From Mobula hypostoma (lineage: Eukaryota): DNA of 64,000 nt. Below, in pieces: positions 4,719-52,519 of this stretch (positions are counted from its first letter, which is position 1; each line of letters starts with the position of its first letter). The DNA lies in contig NC_086097.1 of NCBI RefSeq assembly GCF_963921235.1, positions 14,012,001 through 14,076,000 of the forward strand. Reading direction: 5' to 3'. The notes under the pieces are model-generated. The model was given only the letters and a program-made list of their open reading frames with translations, had not been told where the DNA came from and did not search any database. A program made the position numbers and the translations under genes.

Positions 4719-5256
4719 AAATGTGTACAATAGAAAAGTGAAATCCTCTCTTCCCACACTCCAGCTCTACCAATATGCTTTCTAGTCAAAGAAGCAAGTT
4801 AAAATCTCGCGCGTGTTGCATTCCCTGCTTATGATGTGTTCTTCTGCATTAAGTGAACCATAGGTAAATTTGCTGAACACCTCCATTCAGCTCACAGGTG
4901 TTACCCTAAGCTTCGGCATTGATTGCCAGTCTCTACACCAACTCTGACCTTTTCCTAGGCCTTCAGTGGTCTTCTAACGAAGATCATCCACAGATTCAAG
5001 ATTCAGTATGGAGTTCAGAATTTCACGGTCAAGATCTTTCTGTGACAAATAACTGATTAAGTCCAACCTCCAATTTTCCCCGTCTCTGATATTCACAATA
5101 CTTCAATGTCACTCAAGATCCTCTAAATTTGTCTGAAATATTGAAAGTAAAACTAATATATCAGCTAGCACGTTATGGAACCAAAAATAAACAATCTACT
5201 GAAGTAACTCAATGGATCTGTAGGGGGAAAGGTATTGTCAACATTTCAGGTAAAAA

Positions 5257-5475
5257 GCAACACACAAAATGCTGGAAGAATTTAGTAGGTCAGGCAGCAT
5301 TTGTGGAGAGGAATAGACTGGCAATGTTTCGGGCCAAGACTCTTCATTGGGATTTAGCCCAGAATGTCAGCTGTTTCTTCCCCTCCATAGACGCTGCCTG
5401 ACCTGCTGGATTCCTTCAGCACTCTGTGTGTGTTGGTGTGGATTCCCAGCATCTGCAGATTCTCTTGTGTTTCAG
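5257..5475. mobile_element. Head-to-head inverted pair of PLE termini
   Basis: caacacacaaaatgctgg...caggcagcat on the left, with the reverse-complement copy gctgcctgacctgctg...tgtgtgttg on the right. Confidence 0.75.
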
Positions 5476-5904
5476 GTCAAAGCTCTGTTTAAAGTGTTGA
5501 ATCATCTGCAGTCTTATGTCTTTATTGAACTGAAAAACTTGGAATGCAGAATTATTTTATACCTCCCCTTTTATACCCATTCCTTCTCCTTTCACGTTAT
5601 CTCTCCCTCCTACTCTTACTTGTACAACTTCAATTCCATTTTCTAGTCTATCCCTAATAATCCTCTTACCCTTCATTTCCCCTCACTTTGAAATAGTGCA
5701 GTGAGATAGTAATGAGTTTACTTCAGACAATTCAACAACCTCCTGCTGTAGCTGCAGAACGAACCTGTCCAGAACGTGGATCAACAAAATAGGTCTGAAG
5801 ATTATGGAGTTTATTATCGTATGGCTATCAAGTTACTTCAACACGCATCGTGACCTGGCTGGTAGCCTCCTGCTGTAGATGACAACATCCCTGACAGCAT
5901 GGGT

Positions 5905-6749: not shown

Positions 6750-7105
6750 TCTCCAGTCACCCCTCTACTGCCTGACTCCGTCTACCCATCAACCCTGCCA
6801 CACCTGGATCCACCAATCGCCTGCCAACTCCTGCCTCACCCTTCTCTCTTCCTGCTTCATAGTGGCTGTCCCCAACTTCCTGACGAAGGGTCTCGGCCCG
6901 AAACCTCGGCTGTACCTCTTCCTAGAGATGCTGCCTGCTCCACTGCGTTCACCAGCAACTTTTATGTGTGTTGCTTACACACTCAGTCCTGGTGCAGGGA
7001 CCTGACCTAAAACATCGATTATCCCTCTGCTCCTTGACCCATGGAGTTCCTCCTGCAGCTTGTTTTCCCTCCAGATTCCAGCACCTGCGGTATATTGTGT
7101 CTCCA
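6750..7105 (+). mobile_element. Old PLE 3' region containing a young PLE terminus (about 6879-6973)
   Basis: The young part CTGACGAagggtctcggcccGAAAcctc...gcgttcaccagcaac matches 15171-15630 and 38537-39135. The host copy resumes with cagtcctggtgcaggg...aaaacatcga. Confidence 0.7.
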
Positions 7106-13690: not shown

Positions 13691-15170
13691 CTTGTCAAAA
13701 TTTTGACCAAATTCTCCATGAGGAAAATGAACCATTTCATGCACAATATTTCTTAATATGTTATGTCATTACCTTCATGTGATCAGTAGCACCATCAACT
13801 GCTGGGGGTATCGCCATTGACCAAAACCTCTATACTGACCATAGCAGGCTGGATATCCTATGGTAATTACCCTGATATTCTAAGGTCCTTTCCAACACCT
13901 GCAAGGCCCAAGTTAGCTCTAGATGGTATTGTTAACATTCAGTGCATCAAGGAAAGAGAGCCCAGCATTTTGGACTATCACTATTCACCTCACCAAATAT
14001 ATTCATTCCTTTCACCATCGTTAGATTATGTATCACCTACAAATTCAACCATAGGTCCTCTCCTAGTCACACGTCATCCTGATTTGGAAATATATTATCT
14101 ATCCTTCATCATCACTGGACCCAAATCTTGGAACTCCCTTTCCTAACCTTATTGTGTATGATGGAAATCAAAAATCAAACGTGGGTGAATGTTTCGTGTA
14201 GTGGGGAGTCAATAAAGCTGGTTGCAGTTTCTTTGATGGTAATTGTTGTTAAATCAACAAATCAAGTGTTGTTGAGGGCTAACTTGTGGTTTTAAGATGG
14301 AGCGTCAGGAGGTGAGGTACTCACCGGAGAATATCAACTCTAACCAGAGTCATGGAATGAGAGAGCACAGAAATAGAACCTTTGGCCCACCCTCCCTTTG
14401 CCAAACCTTTGTTCATCAACATTAATCCCATTTGCCTATGTTAGGACTGTATCTTTTATACATTGCCAATTTAACTATCTGTTCAAAGTCCTCTTAACTG
14501 TATCAATCACTTCCTCTGCATCTGCTTTGTCTTTTTTCTGGCACTTCATGGTATGAAAAAAGGCCAGTAACATCATGAAAGATCCCACTCATGGACTGCT
14601 TGTCCCACTCCCATCAGAAGGAAGCTACGCAGCATCCACACCAGGATCACCACACTCGAAAGCAGTTACTTTCCCCCAGCAGTAATGCCTCAACCGAGTA
14701 TCCCACCGTTCCACATCCCCACCAGTATTACTTTATCATTTCCTGTCAGTCACCCTGTGCACAGACACTCCTGTGTCTAGTGTCACTTTATAGATGTGCA
14801 ATCAATCTATATAATAGATAAGCTATCTTATGCATTTATATTTATTATGCTTTATTATTGTGCTCTTTATTTTATTGTGGGTTTTTGTGATGCATTGGAG
14901 TAACAGCTATTTCACTTTCCTTGGCACATGTGTACTGGCAATCATATTAAACAATCTTGAATTCTTAAATACTTGAATACCTGATAACATTTCCAAATAT
15001 CAACACTCCATATAGAAAAAAACTTTAAAATTTCTTATTTCTCACCTTAAATTATGCTTTCTTGTTTCGTTAGCCATACCACTGGGGAAAAAGTCGTTGA
15101 AGTTCTGATCTCAATGCTATCTACATCAACGGGTGAAGAGGCTTCACAATTTGAAACATTAACCTGGCTC

Positions 15171-15630
15171 CACACATCAAAGTTGCTGGTGAACGCAGCA
15201 GGCAAGGCAGCATCTCTAGGAAGAGGTACAGTCAACGTTTCGGGCCGAGACCCTTTGTCAAGACTAACTGAAGGAAGAGTGAGTAAGGGATTTGAAAGTT
15301 GGAGGGGGAGGGGGAGATGCAAAATGATAGGAGAAGACAGGATGGGGAGGGATGGAGCCAAGAGCTGGACAGGTGATTGGCAAAAGGGATATGAGAGGAT
15401 CATGGGATAGGAGGCCCAGGGAGAAGGAAAAGGGGGAGGGGGGGAAACCCAGAGGATGGGCAAGGGGTGTAGTCAGAGGGACAGAGAGAGAAAAAGGAGA
15501 CAGAGAGAAAGAATGTGTGTATATAAATAAATAACGGATGGGGTACGAGGGAGAGGTGGGACATTAGCGGAAGTTAGAGAAGTCAATGTTCATGCCATCA
15601 GGTTGGAGGCTACCCAGACAGAATATAAGG
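15171..15630 (-). mobile_element. Young PLE 3' fragment (end of GIY-YIG coding region, 3' region, terminus)
   Basis: Near-identical to 38537-39000. Flanked by the perfect 11-bp TSD taacctggctc (15160-15170 and 15631-15641). Confidence 0.9.
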
Positions 15631-15664
15631 TAACCTGGCTCTCTATTCACAGATACTACCTGCC

Positions 15665-15950
15665 CAACACATGCAAAATGCTGGAGGAACTCAGCAAGTC
15701 AGACAGCACCTATGGAAATGAATAAACAGTTGACATTTCGGGCCAAAACACTTCTTCAGGACTAGAAAGGAAGGGGGAAGTTGCCAGGATAAAAAAGCGG
15801 GGGACTGAGAAGAAGGATGAGCTAGAAGATGAAGCTAGGTGGGTGGGAAAGGAAAAGAGCTGGGGAAGAAGAAATCTGATGAGAGAAGAGACTGGACCAT
15901 AGGAGAAAGGGAAGAGGAAGGGGACCCAGGGAGATGTGTTAGACAGGTGA
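15665..15950 (-). mobile_element. Older PLE terminus and purine-rich 3' region
   Basis: caacacatgcaaaatgctggaggaactcagc...gacatttcgggcc...ttcttcaggact. Confidence 0.8.
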
Positions 15951-16499
15951 GTGTGTTTTCTGTATTTTCTATTTATATTGTGAAAAAACTTTTACCACTA
16001 AAATTCACTAATTGAAGAGAGAAAATCTTTGTCATTAACAGTTAGTGAAAGTCAATGAATATTGGCCATAACAAACAGTGACCTTGTCTCATGATATCAA
16101 ATCAGAAAAAGTAACATTGACCCATATATGATATTAGTACAAAAGACTTGGTCCAACAGTTTTTAATGTTTTAAGAGACCTTAAATGATGAGAAAGTTAT
16201 ACTAACACAGAGGTTCAGGGACAAACTCCAGACTTGTAGGTGGTTGCCAATATGACCTGATTAAAGAAAATGAGTTTACACTGGAGCCAAATCTGGAGAA
16301 ATACCTCGCAGGACTGTGGAGCTGAGAAGGTTATAATGATAGCAAAGGACTCGAGAACAAGGATGGAGAAGTTAAAAATATGTTGTTTTTTTGGAACAAG
16401 TGACAATGTAGGTCAATGAGTATCAGGAGGTAATGGTCGGCCGGGACTTGGTATGAACTGAGATCCAGCCAGTAGAGTTGTGCTTGAATTCTTTGCTCT

Positions 16500-17085
16500 T
16501 AGAAGGTGGAACCAGGCAAAAGGTCTGAATAGGGAAAATAGGGAGAAGGTTAAGAGTGGTAGAAATGGGTGTAGAAGGAGAGGAACGAGGCAATGGGAAG
16601 AATGAAGGATTGGAGTGAAGAGAGAATAGGTTGGGAGAGAATAGGGATGTTGGGGATGTTCTGGGAGGAAGGAATAAAAGCCAAGTGAAATCCTGATAGG
16701 AGTGAGAGAACACTATGGGGGAGAGGGAGTGAGGGATGATGAATGATGAAGTGAAAGAGAAAAAGCAGGGAGGAACGGATTTAGATAAAAGAATGTTAGT
16801 GGGGAAGAAGCGAGTAAGCAGGGGATAGAAAATAGCCGAGGTCGTGGAGATGGATAACAGACAATGAGAAGAAAGGGAGAAGAGGTGAACAGTGGCTAAG
16901 AGTAAAAGAGAGAGAAATATTTCTCTCTCTCCCTTCCTCCCTCCTTCTCTCTCTCTTTTTCTTGCTCTCCCTCCCTCTCACTTTCTCTCTTATTCTCCAT
17001 CTACCCCTTCCCTGTCTGTCTCTCTCTCATTTTATCTTACTTCCACTTTCCCTCCCTCCCTCCCTGTTCAAACTGTTACTAGGGA
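16500..17085. repeat. Purine-rich tract switching to a pyrimidine-rich tract
   Basis: GA-rich to about 16918, then CT-rich. A perfect 24-bp palindrome (16907-16930) sits at the switch. Confidence 0.8.
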
Positions 17086-17654
17086 AAAGTGAAGGCAGAT
17101 TCCTGTCTCACAGTTTCAAGTTCTGCCTTCTTAAAGCGGTAATATTTTGCCTGTAGCCACATACTCCCTGACTCTTCATGAAGAGTAGTGAGGCTGGAGC
17201 CTGCGTTTTGACTCATCCTTACCTGCCGTGCGGTTGGTGTGCGGTAGGGAGGGAATTAGTAAGGAACAGCAAAAGCCAGTGTTTGAAGGAAGGAACAGGA
17301 AAAGTCCTGGAGGTGGGGGAAAGTTGGCATGAAGCATATGGTAGCAACAACATCCAGGAGAATTAGAAATGCTGAGTGACTCGACACCTGGTAAAATTTT
17401 CACCTTTGTCACATTTTCTGAGATCCCAAACCAAACTCCTTGATCTGTAAGTGCAAGAAGAGAGGAGGGACGTGACTGGACAAGGGCAGTTAATACATTT
17501 GCTGAAAGGACTCTCTAGAGGAGGTGTTCAAAGAAGACAAATAAAATCTTAAGTTATCAGAAGAATAAAGAGCTGAAAATATAATGACAATTAAATTGCT
17601 AATTAGCCAACATTGTAGAATTCAGTGTTGAGTCCAGAACAAAGATCCAGTCAA

Positions 17655-18535
17655 ATTTCAAAGATCAAAGTAACTTTATTATCAAAATACGTATGTTACC
17701 ATATACAACCCTGAGATTCATTTTCTTAAGAGCATACTCAATAAATCCATAAACACGAGGAAATCTGCAGATGCTGGAATTTCAAGCAACACACATAAAA
17801 GTTGCTGGTGAACGCAGCAGGCCAGGCAGCATCTCTAGGAAGAGGTACAGTCGACTATACCTCTTCCGAGAGATGCTGCTTGGCCTGCTGCGTTCACCAG
17901 CAACTTTGATGTGTGTTGCTCAACAAATCCATAATAGTATCAATAAAAGACCAAACCAACATGGGTGTTCAGTGTGCAAAAGACAACAAACTATGCAAAT
18001 ACAGAAAGAGAAGTAATAAAAATAAATAAATAAGCAATAAATGTCGAGACCACGAGATGAAGAGTCATTGAATCCATAGGTTGTGGGAATATTTCAGTGA
18101 TGGAGTACATGGAGTGAAGTTATCCATTTTGATTCAAGAGCCTGATGGCTGAGAGGTAATAACTGTTCCTGAACCTGGTGATGTGATTCGTGAGGCTCCT
18201 GCACATAATTCCTGATGGCGACAGCGAGAAGAGAGCATGCTCTGGGCAGCGTACGCTTGAGATGATGGATGCTGCTTTCCTGCGACAACGCTCCATGAGA
18301 ATGTGCTCAATGGTGGGCAGGGCTTTACTTGTGATGGATTGGGGTCTATCCATTACGTTTTGTAGGATTTTTTAATCAAGGGCATTCTGGACTGTAATAC
18401 TGCCAGTCAATATACTCACCGCCACAAATCGAAGATTGTCAAAGTTTTAGATGTCATGCCGAATCTTCACAAACTTCTAAGGACGTAGAGGTGCTGCCGT
18501 GCTTTCCTTGTAATTGCATTTGCACCCTGGGCCCA
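17655..18535 (-). mobile_element. Rex1/Babar-type LINE 3' fragment hosting a PLE fold-back insertion
   Basis: ORF 18120-18353 (ERCRRKAASII...HALFSLSPSG...TRFRNSYY). Confidence 0.85.
17753..17918. mobile_element. Palindromic (fold-back) PLE-terminus insertion
   Basis: Arms 17785-17852 and 17853-17920 (64/68 complementary, no spacer). 16-bp TSD ctcaa(t/c)aaatccataa at 17737-17752 and 17919-17934. Confidence 0.9.
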
Positions 18536-19515: not shown

Positions 19516-20089
19516 CTGTGCTGGATGTTTAGTTCTTGCCATCGGATTAATTTCTTCACTGAGGTGGTTTCATGCTCTGGGCGTGGGTGCCGATCAATTT
19601 GGAAAAGTGTTAGCATGTGCTGCGCCAAAGACGTAGATTAAGCCAGGTAATTAACTCATTGAGACAGCACAGAAATATGTCCCAGCTTTGTCTGGGACCA
19701 ATTCTGGCTCCTTCTGAAGTCTGTGTCAGCACCCACAGGAATCGGGCCGGGACGGACCTCCTGGCCCCAAGTCAATAAGACACAGTCCCCTGGGTGTGAA
19801 GCTACTCTTTAACGCCAAGCTGAAGCCCCTCAGATAGTCTGCGGCAGGCTCCACAATTCTCTGATGCAAGCACTGACAGGAGGCCTGTGCCTACTAAACA
19901 CATATGAAAACATGCTTGGGTGTAGTCAACAAACATCAGTCAGATTCTTGAATCCAATTTTCACACTGAAAAGATGGACCACCCTGAACTAAGTGCTTCA
20001 GTGCCAAATTCTGAGTCTTCCTGGCTCCCGAGTATTTGGATTTATTGTGAAGCTGCAGCAGTGTAACAGTGATCTGTTTGTAATAAACA

Positions 20090-20315
20090 GAAGCGCAAGA
20101 GGTTCGGCAGATGTCGGATATCCAGACTAACACACATGCACAATGCTGGAGACACTCAGCAGGTCAAACAGCATCAATGGTGAGGAATAAATAGCCGACC
20201 TTTCATCAGGACTCCCACATCATGTATTATGAAGGGTCTCGGCCCAAAACATCAGCTCTTTATTCCTCTCCAGAGATGCTGCCTGACCTGCTGAGCTCCT
20301 CCAGCACTTTGCTTC
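20090..20315. mobile_element. Head-to-head inverted pair of PLE termini
   Basis: atgctggagacactcagcaggtc...ttcatcaggact on the left, tgaagggtctcggccc...gctgcctgacctgctgagctcctccagca on the right. Confidence 0.75.
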
Positions 20316-20409
20316 TGTAATAAACATAAAATGTTTGGAATATTTAGCCGGCCAGTCCGCATCTGCAAAGAGGGAGTGAGTTAATGTTTCAAATCAAATA
20401 CTGTTCATC

Positions 20410-38536: not shown

Positions 38537-39135
38537 CAACATACATCAAAGTTGCTGGTGAACGCAGCAGGCCAAGCAGCATCTATAGGAAGAGGCGCAG
38601 TCGACGTTTCAGGCCGAGACCCTTCGTCAGGACTAACTGAAGGAAGAGTGAGTAAGGGATTTGAAAGTTGGAGGGGGAGGGGGAGATGCAAAATGATAGG
38701 AGAAGACAGGAGGGGGAGGGATAGAGCCGAGAGCTGGACAGGTGATTGGCAAAAGGGGATACGAGAGGATCATGGGACAGGAGGCCTAGGGAGAAAGACG
38801 GGGGGGGGGGTGACCCAGAGGATGGGCAAGAGGTATATTCAGAGGGACAGAGGGAGAAAAAGGAGAGTGAGAGAAAGAATGTGTGCATAAAAATTAGTAA
38901 CAGCTGGGGTACGAGGGGGAGGTGGGGCCTAGCGGAAGTTAGAGAAGTCAATGTTCATGCCATCAGATTGGAGGCTACCCAGACGGAATATAAGGTGTTG
39001 TTCCTCCAACCTGAGTGTGGCTTCATCTTTACAGTAGAGGAGGCCGTGGATAGACATGTCAGAATGGGAATGGGATGTGGAATTAAAATGTGTGGCCACT
39101 GGGAGATCCTGCTTTCTCTGGCGGACAGAGCGTAG
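38537..39135 (-). mobile_element. Young PLE 3' fragment: GIY-YIG endonuclease C-terminus, 3' region and terminus
   Basis: The minus-strand frame 39135-38929 reads LRSVRQRKQDLPVATHFNSTSHSHSDMSIHGLLYCKDEATLRLEEQHLIFRLGSLQSDGMNIDFSNFR* with no internal stop. Confidence 0.9.
38599..38634 (-). ncRNA. Minimal type-I hammerhead ribozyme motif (PLE-associated, dimer type)
   Basis: AGUC-CUGACGA-AGGGUCUCGGCCU-GAAA-CGUC/GACU: complete core, stem I AGUC:GACU, stem II hairpin, palindromic ACGU stem III and a GUC triplet. Confidence 0.7.
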
Positions 39136-47780: not shown

Positions 47781-50647
47781 GTTCAAAAGAACAATAAATA
47801 TGAATAGAAAAGCAACCTTATAAAACACAGCATTCAAGTAACTGAATGTGGCCATATGTACTGTACATAAAATTAGCTTTTTACATATTCTGACTGTATG
47901 TATAGTGGGTGAAGCTAGGTGCCGAGTATCTGTATGTAAGGTGACCCTAACAGGAAATGATAAGGTGACAAAGTGACTCCTGGCAAGAGGGCATCTGAAA
48001 ACACAATAGGGTGGTGACTGTCCGTGTAGGTATGAGTGTAGGTGTAAAGTGGCCATGCATGGGGGGATGAAAGGTGATGGACGGGAGCAGGGAGGAGTAT
48101 GCAGTGGGAGTAGGGGGTGGTGGGGTAGATTAATGGGTGGAGATGTTGATCAGTCTGATAGCTTGGGGGAAGTAATAGTTTCTGAGAAACGGAGAATGTT
48201 GGAAATTCTCAGCAAGTCATGCAGTATCCGTGGAGAACGAAACTGAGTTAATGGCTTCAGGTCAATGATCTTCCATCATTTCTTCAGTAGTGTGCTGTGC
48301 TGAAAAGGGGTGGTGAAACTTATTAAGGGATGATTGCATACTTGCAAGAGGAGAAGTATTTATGAGACCGTGGGGATAGGACAGGGGAGTGGATAGCCCC
48401 ACCAATGAGCTGCCTCGTAGTTAAAGGGCCAAGCACCCTCCTGCATTACGGCATCATCCTATGATTCTATATTCACACTGCTTAAGGCATAAAGAGGACT
48501 GGAGAAGTAATTTTACACATGGAATCACAGCCCTATTGCATATTCATGGCATGACACCAATTTTTTGAAATGTCCTCATTATGGGAAGCCAATTGAAGAG
48601 CCACATGTGTGCAATTAATTGGACCCTGGATGGTTCAAAAGCCTGCTATTCCATAGATGTCCCGTCTGATTTGCTGTTGTTCTTGCAGTGACCCAAGAAA
48701 CCAGATACCGAGGCCGCGCTGACCCGTCAACAGCGTCTGACACGCCGGCACCCGCAACACAACATGAAGGCTTCGATTGTGCTCAGAACAAATTGCCTGC
48801 CACCCCCTCCCACCCTAACCCCAGTCTCCCTTCCACACAGTCCTGCCAGATTTCGAGCATAAGCTAAGCATATTAATTCTAACCTTTCTGTGGACAGGCA
48901 GTGTGTGACTTCTAACACTGTTGTGTTCAGGAGATCCCTGGAGTTTTTAATCACAGATCCAGCACAGTGAGCTTATTGTCCATATGCCTCCTGTAGAGCT
49001 GTGCTTCTGTCAAGATCTGGATACTTGCCCTAAGACAGAACACCTTCTCGGAGATTCTTTCCCTATTTATTCCCGCACAGGATGTGGGTGCCAGCATCTG
49101 TTACCGTCCCTAATTACTGCTGTACTGACTGTTTTGCCAGTCCACTTTAAAGTGCATTTAAACACATTGTTAAACTGGGCATAGTTAGCAGGTTTCCTCT
49201 CATAAAGGATATTAAAGACCACATTTTTCTCAAGGATAATCGAGTCTAAAAACAGAGGACTTAGATTTAAGGTGAGAGGGAGAAGATTTGAGAGGAACCT
49301 GACCGGGGACGTTTTCACACAGAAGATGGCGGGTACAGAGGAAAACCTGTCAGAGGAATGAGGTATCAAGAACAAGTTGCCAGAGGAGGTGGTAGAGGTG
49401 GGGACTACAACATTTGGGCCAGTACGTAGATGCCTCTCAAAGTCCAACCCTACATCCCCATCGTAAGGGTGGAAGCAGGTAAGGCTGGCCAACTGGGCCG
49501 TGGTGAAGCTGGAGAGGTCAATCCTCTGCACAGTGGATACAATGGATTGCAGAAACATTGATGAACTCCAACCATACCATCGACTTTGGACCATGGAGAT
49601 GGGAGGTCTTCAATGGCCTAAGCTCCACTGGGAGTTAAGGGCCCAAGAAGAAGACAGACGAGCATATAGGCCACATGCAAGCAAAATGGACCAGCTTGGA
49701 TAGAGGTTGAGGTGCCCCTACGTGCCTGTTTACATGCAGTATGACTATATGACAGTAAGATTTTTTAAAAATATTTTTAAAAGATGTCCAAAAGATCCAT
49801 AAGACCACAAAACATAGGAGCACAAGTCGATTATACATGTCATGATTACTGATACTAACTTCTTATTCAGGATTCATCTAATTACTCGAATTTCAACTCC
49901 CAAGATACTGAGATGGGATTTGAGTTCATTCCTTCAGATCAATAGTCTAGGTCTCTCAGTGTTAGTCCACTAACACACCCGCTGTGCTAACACAAGTCCA
50001 CTAACACCCTACTGGATTGGTAAAGGAGGGGAGAGGCATTAAAGAATGAAGTCCTCAATCAATAGCAATGCAATCGAGCAGTTAGACTCCTTCTGGACAA
50101 ATTGCTAGTGACGCCTTACATTTTAAACAAAGTTCAGTGACATGCACAGAAAAGTCATAAGTATCTGGGAGCACATTTCAAACTGAACTGCAAATTGCAG
50201 TCTTTAACAATAAGCCCGGGAGGCAGGCATCGTACCTGCAATTCCAACAAAAGGACTAAAATGATCTTGTAAGTTGCTATAGATTTAGAGAAAAGTAAAA
50301 CAAAAAAGTCCTGAGAATTGGGACTTTCCGGTCTCAGAATGGTTTGCCTGCGTCTAGTGACATAAAATTTGAAAGAAAATAGATTTTTTTTGCCAGGGAT
50401 TAATTAGTCATAATAATTGTAGTCGACTCAGGCTGCAGTCGATTACGGCTTATTATCCAACTAATCACAGTGGCTTTCCTTCTCAGTGTTCTGGCTGTCA
50501 GCAGCAGCAAGTCTTTGGGCTATCCTCCATTCTGTTAAAATTCACTCTTAAAAGCCAGCTTTTTATTTTGTTTGCTCTTCTTAAATGTGAAAGATCAATC
50601 CTCCTAAACTACAGACAGTATATGTATATGTATACACAAATGGAAAT

Positions 50648-50650
<3 letters not shown>

Positions 50651-50705
<55 letters not shown>

Positions 50706-50782
50706 GCGCGCGCACACACACACACACACACACAAACGCGTGCACACACACATACACACACACACACACACACACGTGCGCG

Positions 50783-50813
<31 letters not shown>

Positions 50814-50821
50814 AAACGCGT

Positions 50822-50889
<68 letters not shown>

Positions 50890-50900
50890 ACACAAGCACA
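50651..50900. repeat. Compound (CA)n/(CG)n microsatellite with a duplicated higher-order unit
   Basis: (CA)n-CGTG(CG)n-(CA)n-AACGCGTG occurs twice. Confidence 0.95.
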
Positions 50901-52519
50901 CATTTCCCATCCACAGCCCTCACAAGCCGCAAGAGCTGACTTAATAAATGAACTCCTTCCCTCTTGCCTGGGAGCAAGTGCAGATTAATATCTGCCTACC
51001 TTGTTACTTAATTCATTATGGAATAGCAGTTAATTTGATTTGATATTATTTTAATAAAATTCTGTAATATATTAGATTGTTTCAGGCTATCAAAATAATT
51101 TTCCAATTATTACGGTCGCTCAAGCAAGTCTTTTTCACAGCGGCAGTTGGTCTGGCTCAGAATACATTAGTGGCAACAGCTTCACGCTGGTCAGAGGAGT
51201 GAGGAAAAAAATAATATGCATGATTACACCAGAAATGTTACTGCCTATAATGTGCACCCATAGAATGCAGAGACTCCCTGGGTACTGATGTTCCCCCTGC
51301 AAAGCGACAAATGTATGCGATTAGGTTCTTTGGTAAAAGAGCAGGAATTACAGTAGTTCAAGGTTAATTAACTCTTTCAATGCTGACTGTTTGACAGCAC
51401 GGTTTGCTGGCTTTGCCAGATCTGGCAGCTTGCTCTTATGATCCTATGGGAGTCACTGTTCCACAGCTGGTTACCCTTGGTGCGACTGATTGGCTGGAAT
51501 ACCACTGAAGCTATCCCTGCCAGGCTTGCTTTACCCTTTAAAATTAATTTTCTCCCTCTAGCCTCTGCTTCTAGTTCAATTGAATTGCATTTGTTTTTTT
51601 GCTTTAAACCCAGACTATTTATTGAGATCAATATTTTTAATCACAGACTGTGGTGACTCCATTGGAATGCCTGCTTCCCGATTTGATACTGAACTATGAA
51701 GATTCAGATGGACCTTTGGTGACTGGACATTGACAGAGGTGCCAGAGCTATTGAGTTGAGAGATGGGAGTACAAATGGATGCAGTATTCACCGTTGCCAA
51801 ACTGCGAGTCTTCATTGGTACCAGGTGAAAATTAGTTTGGGAATATTATTGAAGATGACAGAGCCCCTGGCAAAATCTACAAGCCTGGTTTGCACCTGAG
51901 GTTAAAAAAGTAACATAGAGACAGCGAGACAGACAGAGAGAGAGAGATAGGTAGATAGGTAGCTGGGTAGAATTTAAAGGAAGTTGGAAACCACTTATCA
52001 TCCCCACATGATAAACCTCTGCCATACCCCTAAAATATACACTACAAATATAAAAATATCTACATTTGCATATTGTTAGAATAATTGCACAGATTTAACA
52101 AGTAATCCAATAACCAATACCGAAGGTTTGGGAAGATGCTCAAATCCCACCTACTGAGCAACACAGTAACAGAAGGCTTGACGGGGGGGTGAGTTATGAG
52201 TAGGGAGGGATGGAGTGAGAGAGAGAGAGGCAGAGAAAGGAGGAGAGAGAAAGGGGGAGAGAGAGAGAGAGAGAAATAATTGGAATTAGGAATTTACTGA
52301 ATCAGTTGATGGGTCATATACTCATCCCCATAAGACCTTATGATGTCCATGCTATTTACGACGTCGCTCCAAGAGCATTAATGGGTACCCTATCTGCAAG
52401 ATAGGAATCCCTGCAATTAGATAAAACAACAATTAGAAAATACTCAGCAAAGAAGAGTTTATATTTTAGGTCAATGACCTGTCATCGTAGCTGCTCTTTA
52501 CAGTATCTATATACTCTTA

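Follow-up and report, generated by a model that had tools for sequence, protein, structure and literature searches.

A very short head-to-head insertion of an abundant Penelope-like element in Mobula hypostoma, with its axis on the predicted hammerhead cut

Related systems and how the locus compares

Head-to-head insertions of EN+ Penelope-like elements (PLEs) are described as units in which one copy is inverted and 5'-truncated, a tail of 30-40 bp is present on one side only, a target-site duplication (TSD) flanks the unit and palindromes occur at the inverted junction (PMC8557442, PMC3846280). The insertion reported here lies at positions 17737-17934 of a 64,000-nucleotide stretch of the Mobula hypostoma genome (contig NC_086097.1, positions 14,012,001 to 14,076,000), hereafter the window, and shares these traits. 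It differs from the published cases, as far as those two reports set them out, in that both copies are trimmed to the last 68-100 bp of the element, the TSD measures 14-16 bp as against 8-10 bp in the rotifer PLEs, and the junction palindrome is centred on a hammerhead cut. It is a real, very short head-to-head insertion of an abundant PLE, and ordinary of its kind.

The purified protein of Poseidon PAc, a PLE of Anolis carolinensis, cuts and extends both strands of its target and initiates at two internal sites, by which the tail is defined; in the experiments reported it used mainly unprocessed RNA and required no hammerhead cleavage (PMC11167929). The ray family is similar in having two start sites that bound a tail, AT-rich targets and an upstream hammerhead, and cutting and extension of both strands is what we infer for it as well. 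A relative of the ray ORF, protein P0001, differs from Poseidon PAc in that by eye it has a cysteine-rich linker before the GIY-YIG domain. Such a linker is given as a feature of the Neptune clade (PMC8557442), and on the protein sequence it suggests that the ray family may belong to Neptune rather than Poseidon.

The minimal hammerheads of metazoan PLEs have an extra base between positions 9 and 10.1, a helix III that is palindromic and lacks a loop, and a helix I that is short (PMC4209133); the motif of the ray family shares these features. In contrast to the hammerheads described in that paper, the family motif is a predicted ribozyme, and the insert under study does not carry its core.

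In L1 twin priming both target ends prime and the cDNAs anneal at short complementarity, as we propose here (PMC2912911, bioRxiv 10.1101/2024.08.27.596794). L1 is described there as using a single RNA on which priming occurs both at the poly(A) and internally, whereas the arms of the ray insertion cover the same stretch of the element from two fixed start sites and probably come from two RNAs. For the twister ribozyme of Perere-3, an insertion boundary at the ribozyme cut was taken to record cleavage (PMC8501958), and an earlier, sequence-only reading of the ray locus followed the same logic. In Perere-3 the boundary recurs beside TSDs and cleavage has been shown (PMC8501958), whereas here most copies cross the cut and the palindrome confounds the boundary. 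A non-LTR retrozyme was also considered and rejected. Such retrozymes are made of tandem units, each with a complete hammerhead (bioRxiv 10.64898/2026.07.22.740005); the present insert is inverted and the core is absent.

As it stands, the insert is a single defunct fragment of a repeat that is very abundant. It points to the question of whether cleavage by metazoan PLE minimal hammerheads takes place in vivo and whether the cut RNA serves as template. The 2014 paper on PLE hammerheads reports no in vivo evidence (PMC4209133), and the 2024 paper reports cleavage to be dispensable in vitro (PMC11167929). It points also to the question of how the inverted repeats of PLEs form. In a limited literature search we found no report of PLE junctions at a hammerhead cut, and such a peak across the genome would therefore be new; the nearest precedent is the twister ribozyme of Perere-3 (PMC8501958).

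The element family and the anatomy of the insert

The window gave 29 profile hits to the family, 21 of which are well aligned copies. The 19 other copies counted throughout exclude the 8 weaker hits; by eye, three of these stop 15-35 nt before the cut, four resemble older read-through relatives and one is doubtful. The longest young copy, at 38537-39135, continues into the end of the ORF. This C-terminal part (38932-39135, minus strand) is 93% identical to P0001, a Mobula hypostoma protein, and its best relatives are annotated from rays. Pfam detected GIY-YIG in all four relatives scanned, each time below the curated cut-off (E 5e-4 to 8e-3), and RVT_1 in one of the four, while the 68-aa ORF piece on its own gave no Pfam match. 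The family thereby has the combination of reverse transcriptase and C-terminal GIY-YIG in its ORF that defines EN+ PLEs; the insert itself contains no ORF.

The same young family has an intact minimal hammerhead motif at 38599-38634 on the minus strand. It matches the descriptor, with 4 of 4 bp in helices I and II, and the predicted cut had been placed correctly by the sequence-only reading. The descriptor fits three copies in the window with at least 3 of 4 bp in the helices, which corresponds to a terminal repeat (pLTR) that carries a hammerhead motif. A search of the window against Rfam gave 0 matches at the gathering score, and the intact motif gave one irrelevant match (E 1.4) and none to a hammerhead. 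Free folding of single or paired motif copies produced no hammerhead fold and was uninformative. In older subfamilies the palindrome lies 2 nt off the cut, and copies 5472, 6421 and 20311 read CAGCTG.

The start sites of 20 of the 21 copies fall into two equal classes of 10, one at the tail end and the other at a proximal site about 32 nt inward. These classes fit the two reverse transcription (RT) start sites reported for the anole PLE (PMC11167929).

Contig pieces from public data numbered 107,000-232,000 per run on a 2.8-kb stretch that holds several repeats, the insert's family among them, a depth that does not equal copy number. A scan with a family pattern gave four matches in metagenome contigs, all of them by chance (20-25 nt without flanking likeness), and 0 in viral contigs and 0 in genome contigs.

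Some further copies deserve mention. The copy at 15160-15641 is young, non-inverted and tail-less, has a perfect 11-bp TSD and extends at its 5' end to about 395 nt beyond the cut. The young copy at 6878-6976 seemingly sits inside an older distant relative (6878-7094), just after the ribozyme region of that relative. Four ray protein models named for host genes (P0003, P0006, P0007 and P0011) contain the PLE ORF end, and represent either an exonised repeat or an annotation error. A long microsatellite of mixed (CA)n/(CG) type at 50600-50990 is a source of spurious open frames.

The hairpin consists of a left arm at 17785-17852 (minus strand) and a right arm at 17853-17920 (plus strand). The arms are 68 nt each, 94% complementary and separated by a spacer of 0 nt, and they differ by four mismatches (17797/17908, 17825/17880, 17837/17868 and 17848/17857). 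The DNA fold of the hairpin has a z of -18.8, and an equal fold was obtained in 0 of 200 shuffles. Alignment of the repeats confirmed the hairpin much as the sequence-only reading had drawn it, with the arms meeting on the axis of the predicted cut. The left arm comprises the 3' end of the element, beginning at the proximal start site and running up to the predicted hammerhead cut, or perhaps to 17855; the right arm is an inverted, tail-less second copy. Only the left copy carries a tail, 32 bp long (17753-17784, minus strand) and common to nine other tailed copies in the window, its end probably being the distal RT start site. The concept of a one-sided PLE tail is set out in PMC8557442 and PMC11167929. 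As the left copy exceeds the right one by these 32 bp, the whole insert is 166 bp (17753-17918), a tailed and a tail-less PLE 3' end placed head to head. The insertion had been given as 136 bp, which holds for the palindrome and falls short of the insert.

Direct-repeat comparison of the flanks identified the two copies of the TSD, both on the plus strand: an AT-rich left copy at 17737-17752 and a right copy with one mismatch at 17919-17934. They are identical at 15 of 16 positions, for which the chance is about 4e-8 at one offset. The last two letters of the right arm double as the first two of the right repeat, so the length of the TSD is 14-16 bp; the 16-bp repeat with one mismatch reported before is there, with its exact length less certain than stated. 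This single TSD bounds the whole unit, which bears out the earlier view that the hairpin entered as one PLE insertion. The insert interrupts an older dispersed host repeat (17657-18060, plus strand, edges approximate). When it is excised in silico, the flanks are collinear with four paralogues of that repeat in the window. The paralogues hold about 8 additional letters, and because these fall inside the duplicated stretch they do not set the TSD edges to the base.

The catalytic core of the hammerhead is missing from both strands of 17737-17934, and the right arm opens with GAC, the bases with which the predicted 3' cleavage product begins, both as described previously. The hairpin insert has neither core nor ORF, and no likely function.

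The arms meet in the hexamer GTCGAC (17850-17855), a palindrome centred on the predicted cut. It is native to the family and spans the cut also in copies 38600, 47052 and 59753. Both arms match the family through all six letters and both end 3 nt past the cut (+3), so the junction may lie anywhere within these 6 bp. The claim that the symmetry falls exactly on the cleavage site is therefore right for the axis and too precise for the junction. The axis lies on the cut because the cut triplet of the family and the start of helix I together spell the palindrome. Since any join mediated by GTCGAC yields the same sequence and the same axis, the coincidence of axis and cut is not independent evidence. 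In the first 224 nt of the intact copy there are three 6-nt self-complementary options, and GTCGAC is the only one at or just past the cut, close to the stopping points of short copies. At a single locus annealed ends and cut ends are indistinguishable, as the sequence is identical either way.

Copy ends and contig joints around the predicted cut

Among the other 19 aligned copies, 18 continue for 12 nt or more beyond the cut, and copy 52840 is too decayed to call. A clear end at the cut was seen in none of the 19, which gives a 95% upper bound of 15% for such ends, or of 23% counting the uncallable copy; nine copies end within +12 to +39. Given these numbers, short cDNAs that end just past the palindrome are common. 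A recurrent boundary at the cut, of the type found in Perere-3, was thus seen in 0 of 19 window copies, a small sample in which a minor peak is possible.

Two older head-to-head insertions, TSD-bounded (11-12 bp) and one-tailed, served as controls. Beyond the cut, the arms of the one at 5244-5481 reach about +30 to +35 and +16 to +28, and those of the one at 20079-20326 about +35 and +24. In the latter control some 14 nt of filler separate the arms at the turn, and one arm has lost a short internal segment. We did not find a TSD for the inverted pairs 52840/53117 and 23251/23831. No palindrome could be recognised at the turn of any of the window's four other inverted pairs, which are too decayed for microhomology scoring.

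A cluster of about 7 ends among the 19 other copies falls 23-35 nt past the cut, on or close to the hammerhead's 5' edge (copies 5254, 6421, 6976, 11584, 20083, 20311 and 35435). This cluster looks stronger than any at the cut, yet the alignments of old copies fade there too. Just upstream, on the sense strand of long copies, lies a pyrimidine tract ending in AG that resembles a 3' splice site. An intron ending at helix I has been described from Drosophila (PMC4209133).

Four public contig sets, from two samples under two species labels, were aligned to 15100-17855, a region that contains a long copy and the left arm. The survey is a weak test, in which 15 of 1320 joints and 24 of 5000 loose ends were listed and some joints went uncounted, and it excludes only a dominant peak at the cut. 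None of the 15 joints listed is at the cut, and the 24 loose ends listed include neither 15233 nor 17852. The tail start, 17751, appeared among the loose ends listed in three of the four runs (452-603 contigs). The sole opposite-strand joint near the ribozyme among those listed leaves at 15251, 18 nt past the cut (1 contig in X2, 3 in X6), where the strands match at 6 of 7 letters as judged from the reference sequence. Single-copy contigs among those listed stop at 17720 or 17683, and none of the listed contigs reaches the hairpin, which itself is known from the assembly alone. Contig assembly tends to collapse perfect hairpins.

The most frequent opposite-strand joints among those listed connect 15674 with 17751-17761 (18-37 contigs per run, top row). 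They link the 3' start regions of copies and may represent tail-to-tail neighbours or insertion beside existing ends.

Formation of the hairpin

We suggest, with somewhat more confidence than doubt, that the hairpin arose by two-ended priming and that the two cDNAs were joined by annealing at GTCGAC. In brief, the GIY-YIG endonuclease would nick an AT-rich target with a stagger of 14-16 nt, to judge from the TSD. One target 3' end would then prime RT at the distal start site, giving tail and arm, and the other, through a 2-nt match to the target, would prime at the proximal start site 32 nt further in, giving an arm only. The two primings probably took place on two different RNA molecules. Both short cDNAs would extend at least 3 nt beyond the position of the ribozyme cut, on uncut RNA. 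Their 3' ends would anneal via the self-complementary hexamer, after which overhangs would be trimmed and gaps filled, by analogy with L1 twin priming. In favour of this reading, the anatomy of the insert matches that of published PLE insertions (PMC8557442, PMC3846280).

The same two-ended priming could have used at least one hammerhead-cut template, with the cDNA running off at the cut and a join that was blunt or paired over 3-4 nt. We regard this as possible, if rather unlikely. It would account for an axis precisely on the predicted cut and for arms that both lack everything beyond it in a family with an intact core, and the TSDs adjoining twister cut sites in Perere-3 provide a precedent (PMC8501958). 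However, 0 of 19 other copies clearly end at the cut, which also makes two cut templates at once improbable, and no cut-site joint or loose end (15233, 17852) was present among the 15 joints and 24 ends listed from the contigs. Moreover, metazoan minimal hammerheads are reported to cleave poorly in vitro (PMC4209133), and among the anole RNA reads described none began or ended at the cut (PMC11167929). The sequence-only reading had taken the axis for a footprint of cleavage. This is not supported, since the sequence is the same after any join at GTCGAC, none of the 19 other copies has a clear end at the cut and the other pairs turn elsewhere. If a cleaved template was nevertheless used, the junction records cleavage in vivo. 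It is then a tentative idea, and one we doubt, that in the germ line the RNA of this ray PLE is cleaved by its minimal hammerhead and that the cut RNA is sometimes reverse-transcribed to its end, a minority of insertions, the present one among them, recording the cleavage. The other explanation offered at the time, microhomology at GTCGAC, is the likelier one, though the join was more probably made at integration than by a later deletion.

Such a deletion, in which a longer head-to-head insertion lost its centre between two direct repeats of GTCGAC, is hardly probable. Both TSD-bounded controls do keep the core in both arms, microhomology deletions have been described in PLEs (PMC3846280) and one is visible in copy 20083, but the product would be a palindrome both more perfect and less stable than its precursor. 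A form of the locus with a spacer, as allele or orthologue, did not appear among the contigs listed, none of which reaches the locus. An assembly or read artefact, either a collapsed spacer or a fold-back read, would fit the listed single-copy contigs that stop short of the axis (17720 or 17683, in a survey reaching 17855); it is very improbable, as the arms differ at four sites and end at element boundaries, the TSD bounds the insert and the host repeat continues collinearly on either side. Copying of a single cDNA upon itself, after it had folded back or self-primed at either the palindrome or a cut end (cf. Arkhipova et al. 2013), is improbable as well; the sequence-only reading had included such a step. 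Folding back would explain the spacer-less axis, and self-priming has been inferred from palindromes at the inverted junctions of other PLEs (PMC3846280). The arms would, however, have been identical initially, and two of their four differences match variants of other copies (p ~0.04); the right arm also stops at the standard proximal start site, not at the tail end or at a random point.

Those differences bear on whether the two-ended priming that we favour drew on one RNA or two. At 17797/17908 the left letter is common to copy 6976 and the right letter to three other copies, and at 17825/17880 the letter of the right arm is common to copy 38537. When four random mutations on one template were simulated, at least two matched the 14 variants of four other copies in 4-5% of cases (p 0.04-0.05); this comparison is post hoc and small, with four comparison copies. 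Mismatches at 4 of 68 positions are also expected from age alone, the TSD having 1 in 16. The end of the right arm coincides with the second standard start site, which 10 of the 21 copies share. Because of this end and the variant matches at two of the four mismatches we favour two separately primed cDNAs, and it is likely that the arms derive from two different RNA molecules. If true, this would speak for double priming, rather than self-priming, as the way in which the inverted repeats of PLEs arise.

The letters CATAA or CATGA often precede tailed copies (17748-17752 at the insert; also 23246, 23836, 45861, 46949 and 53122). They may reflect a target preference or the pairing of a few letters between target and RNA.
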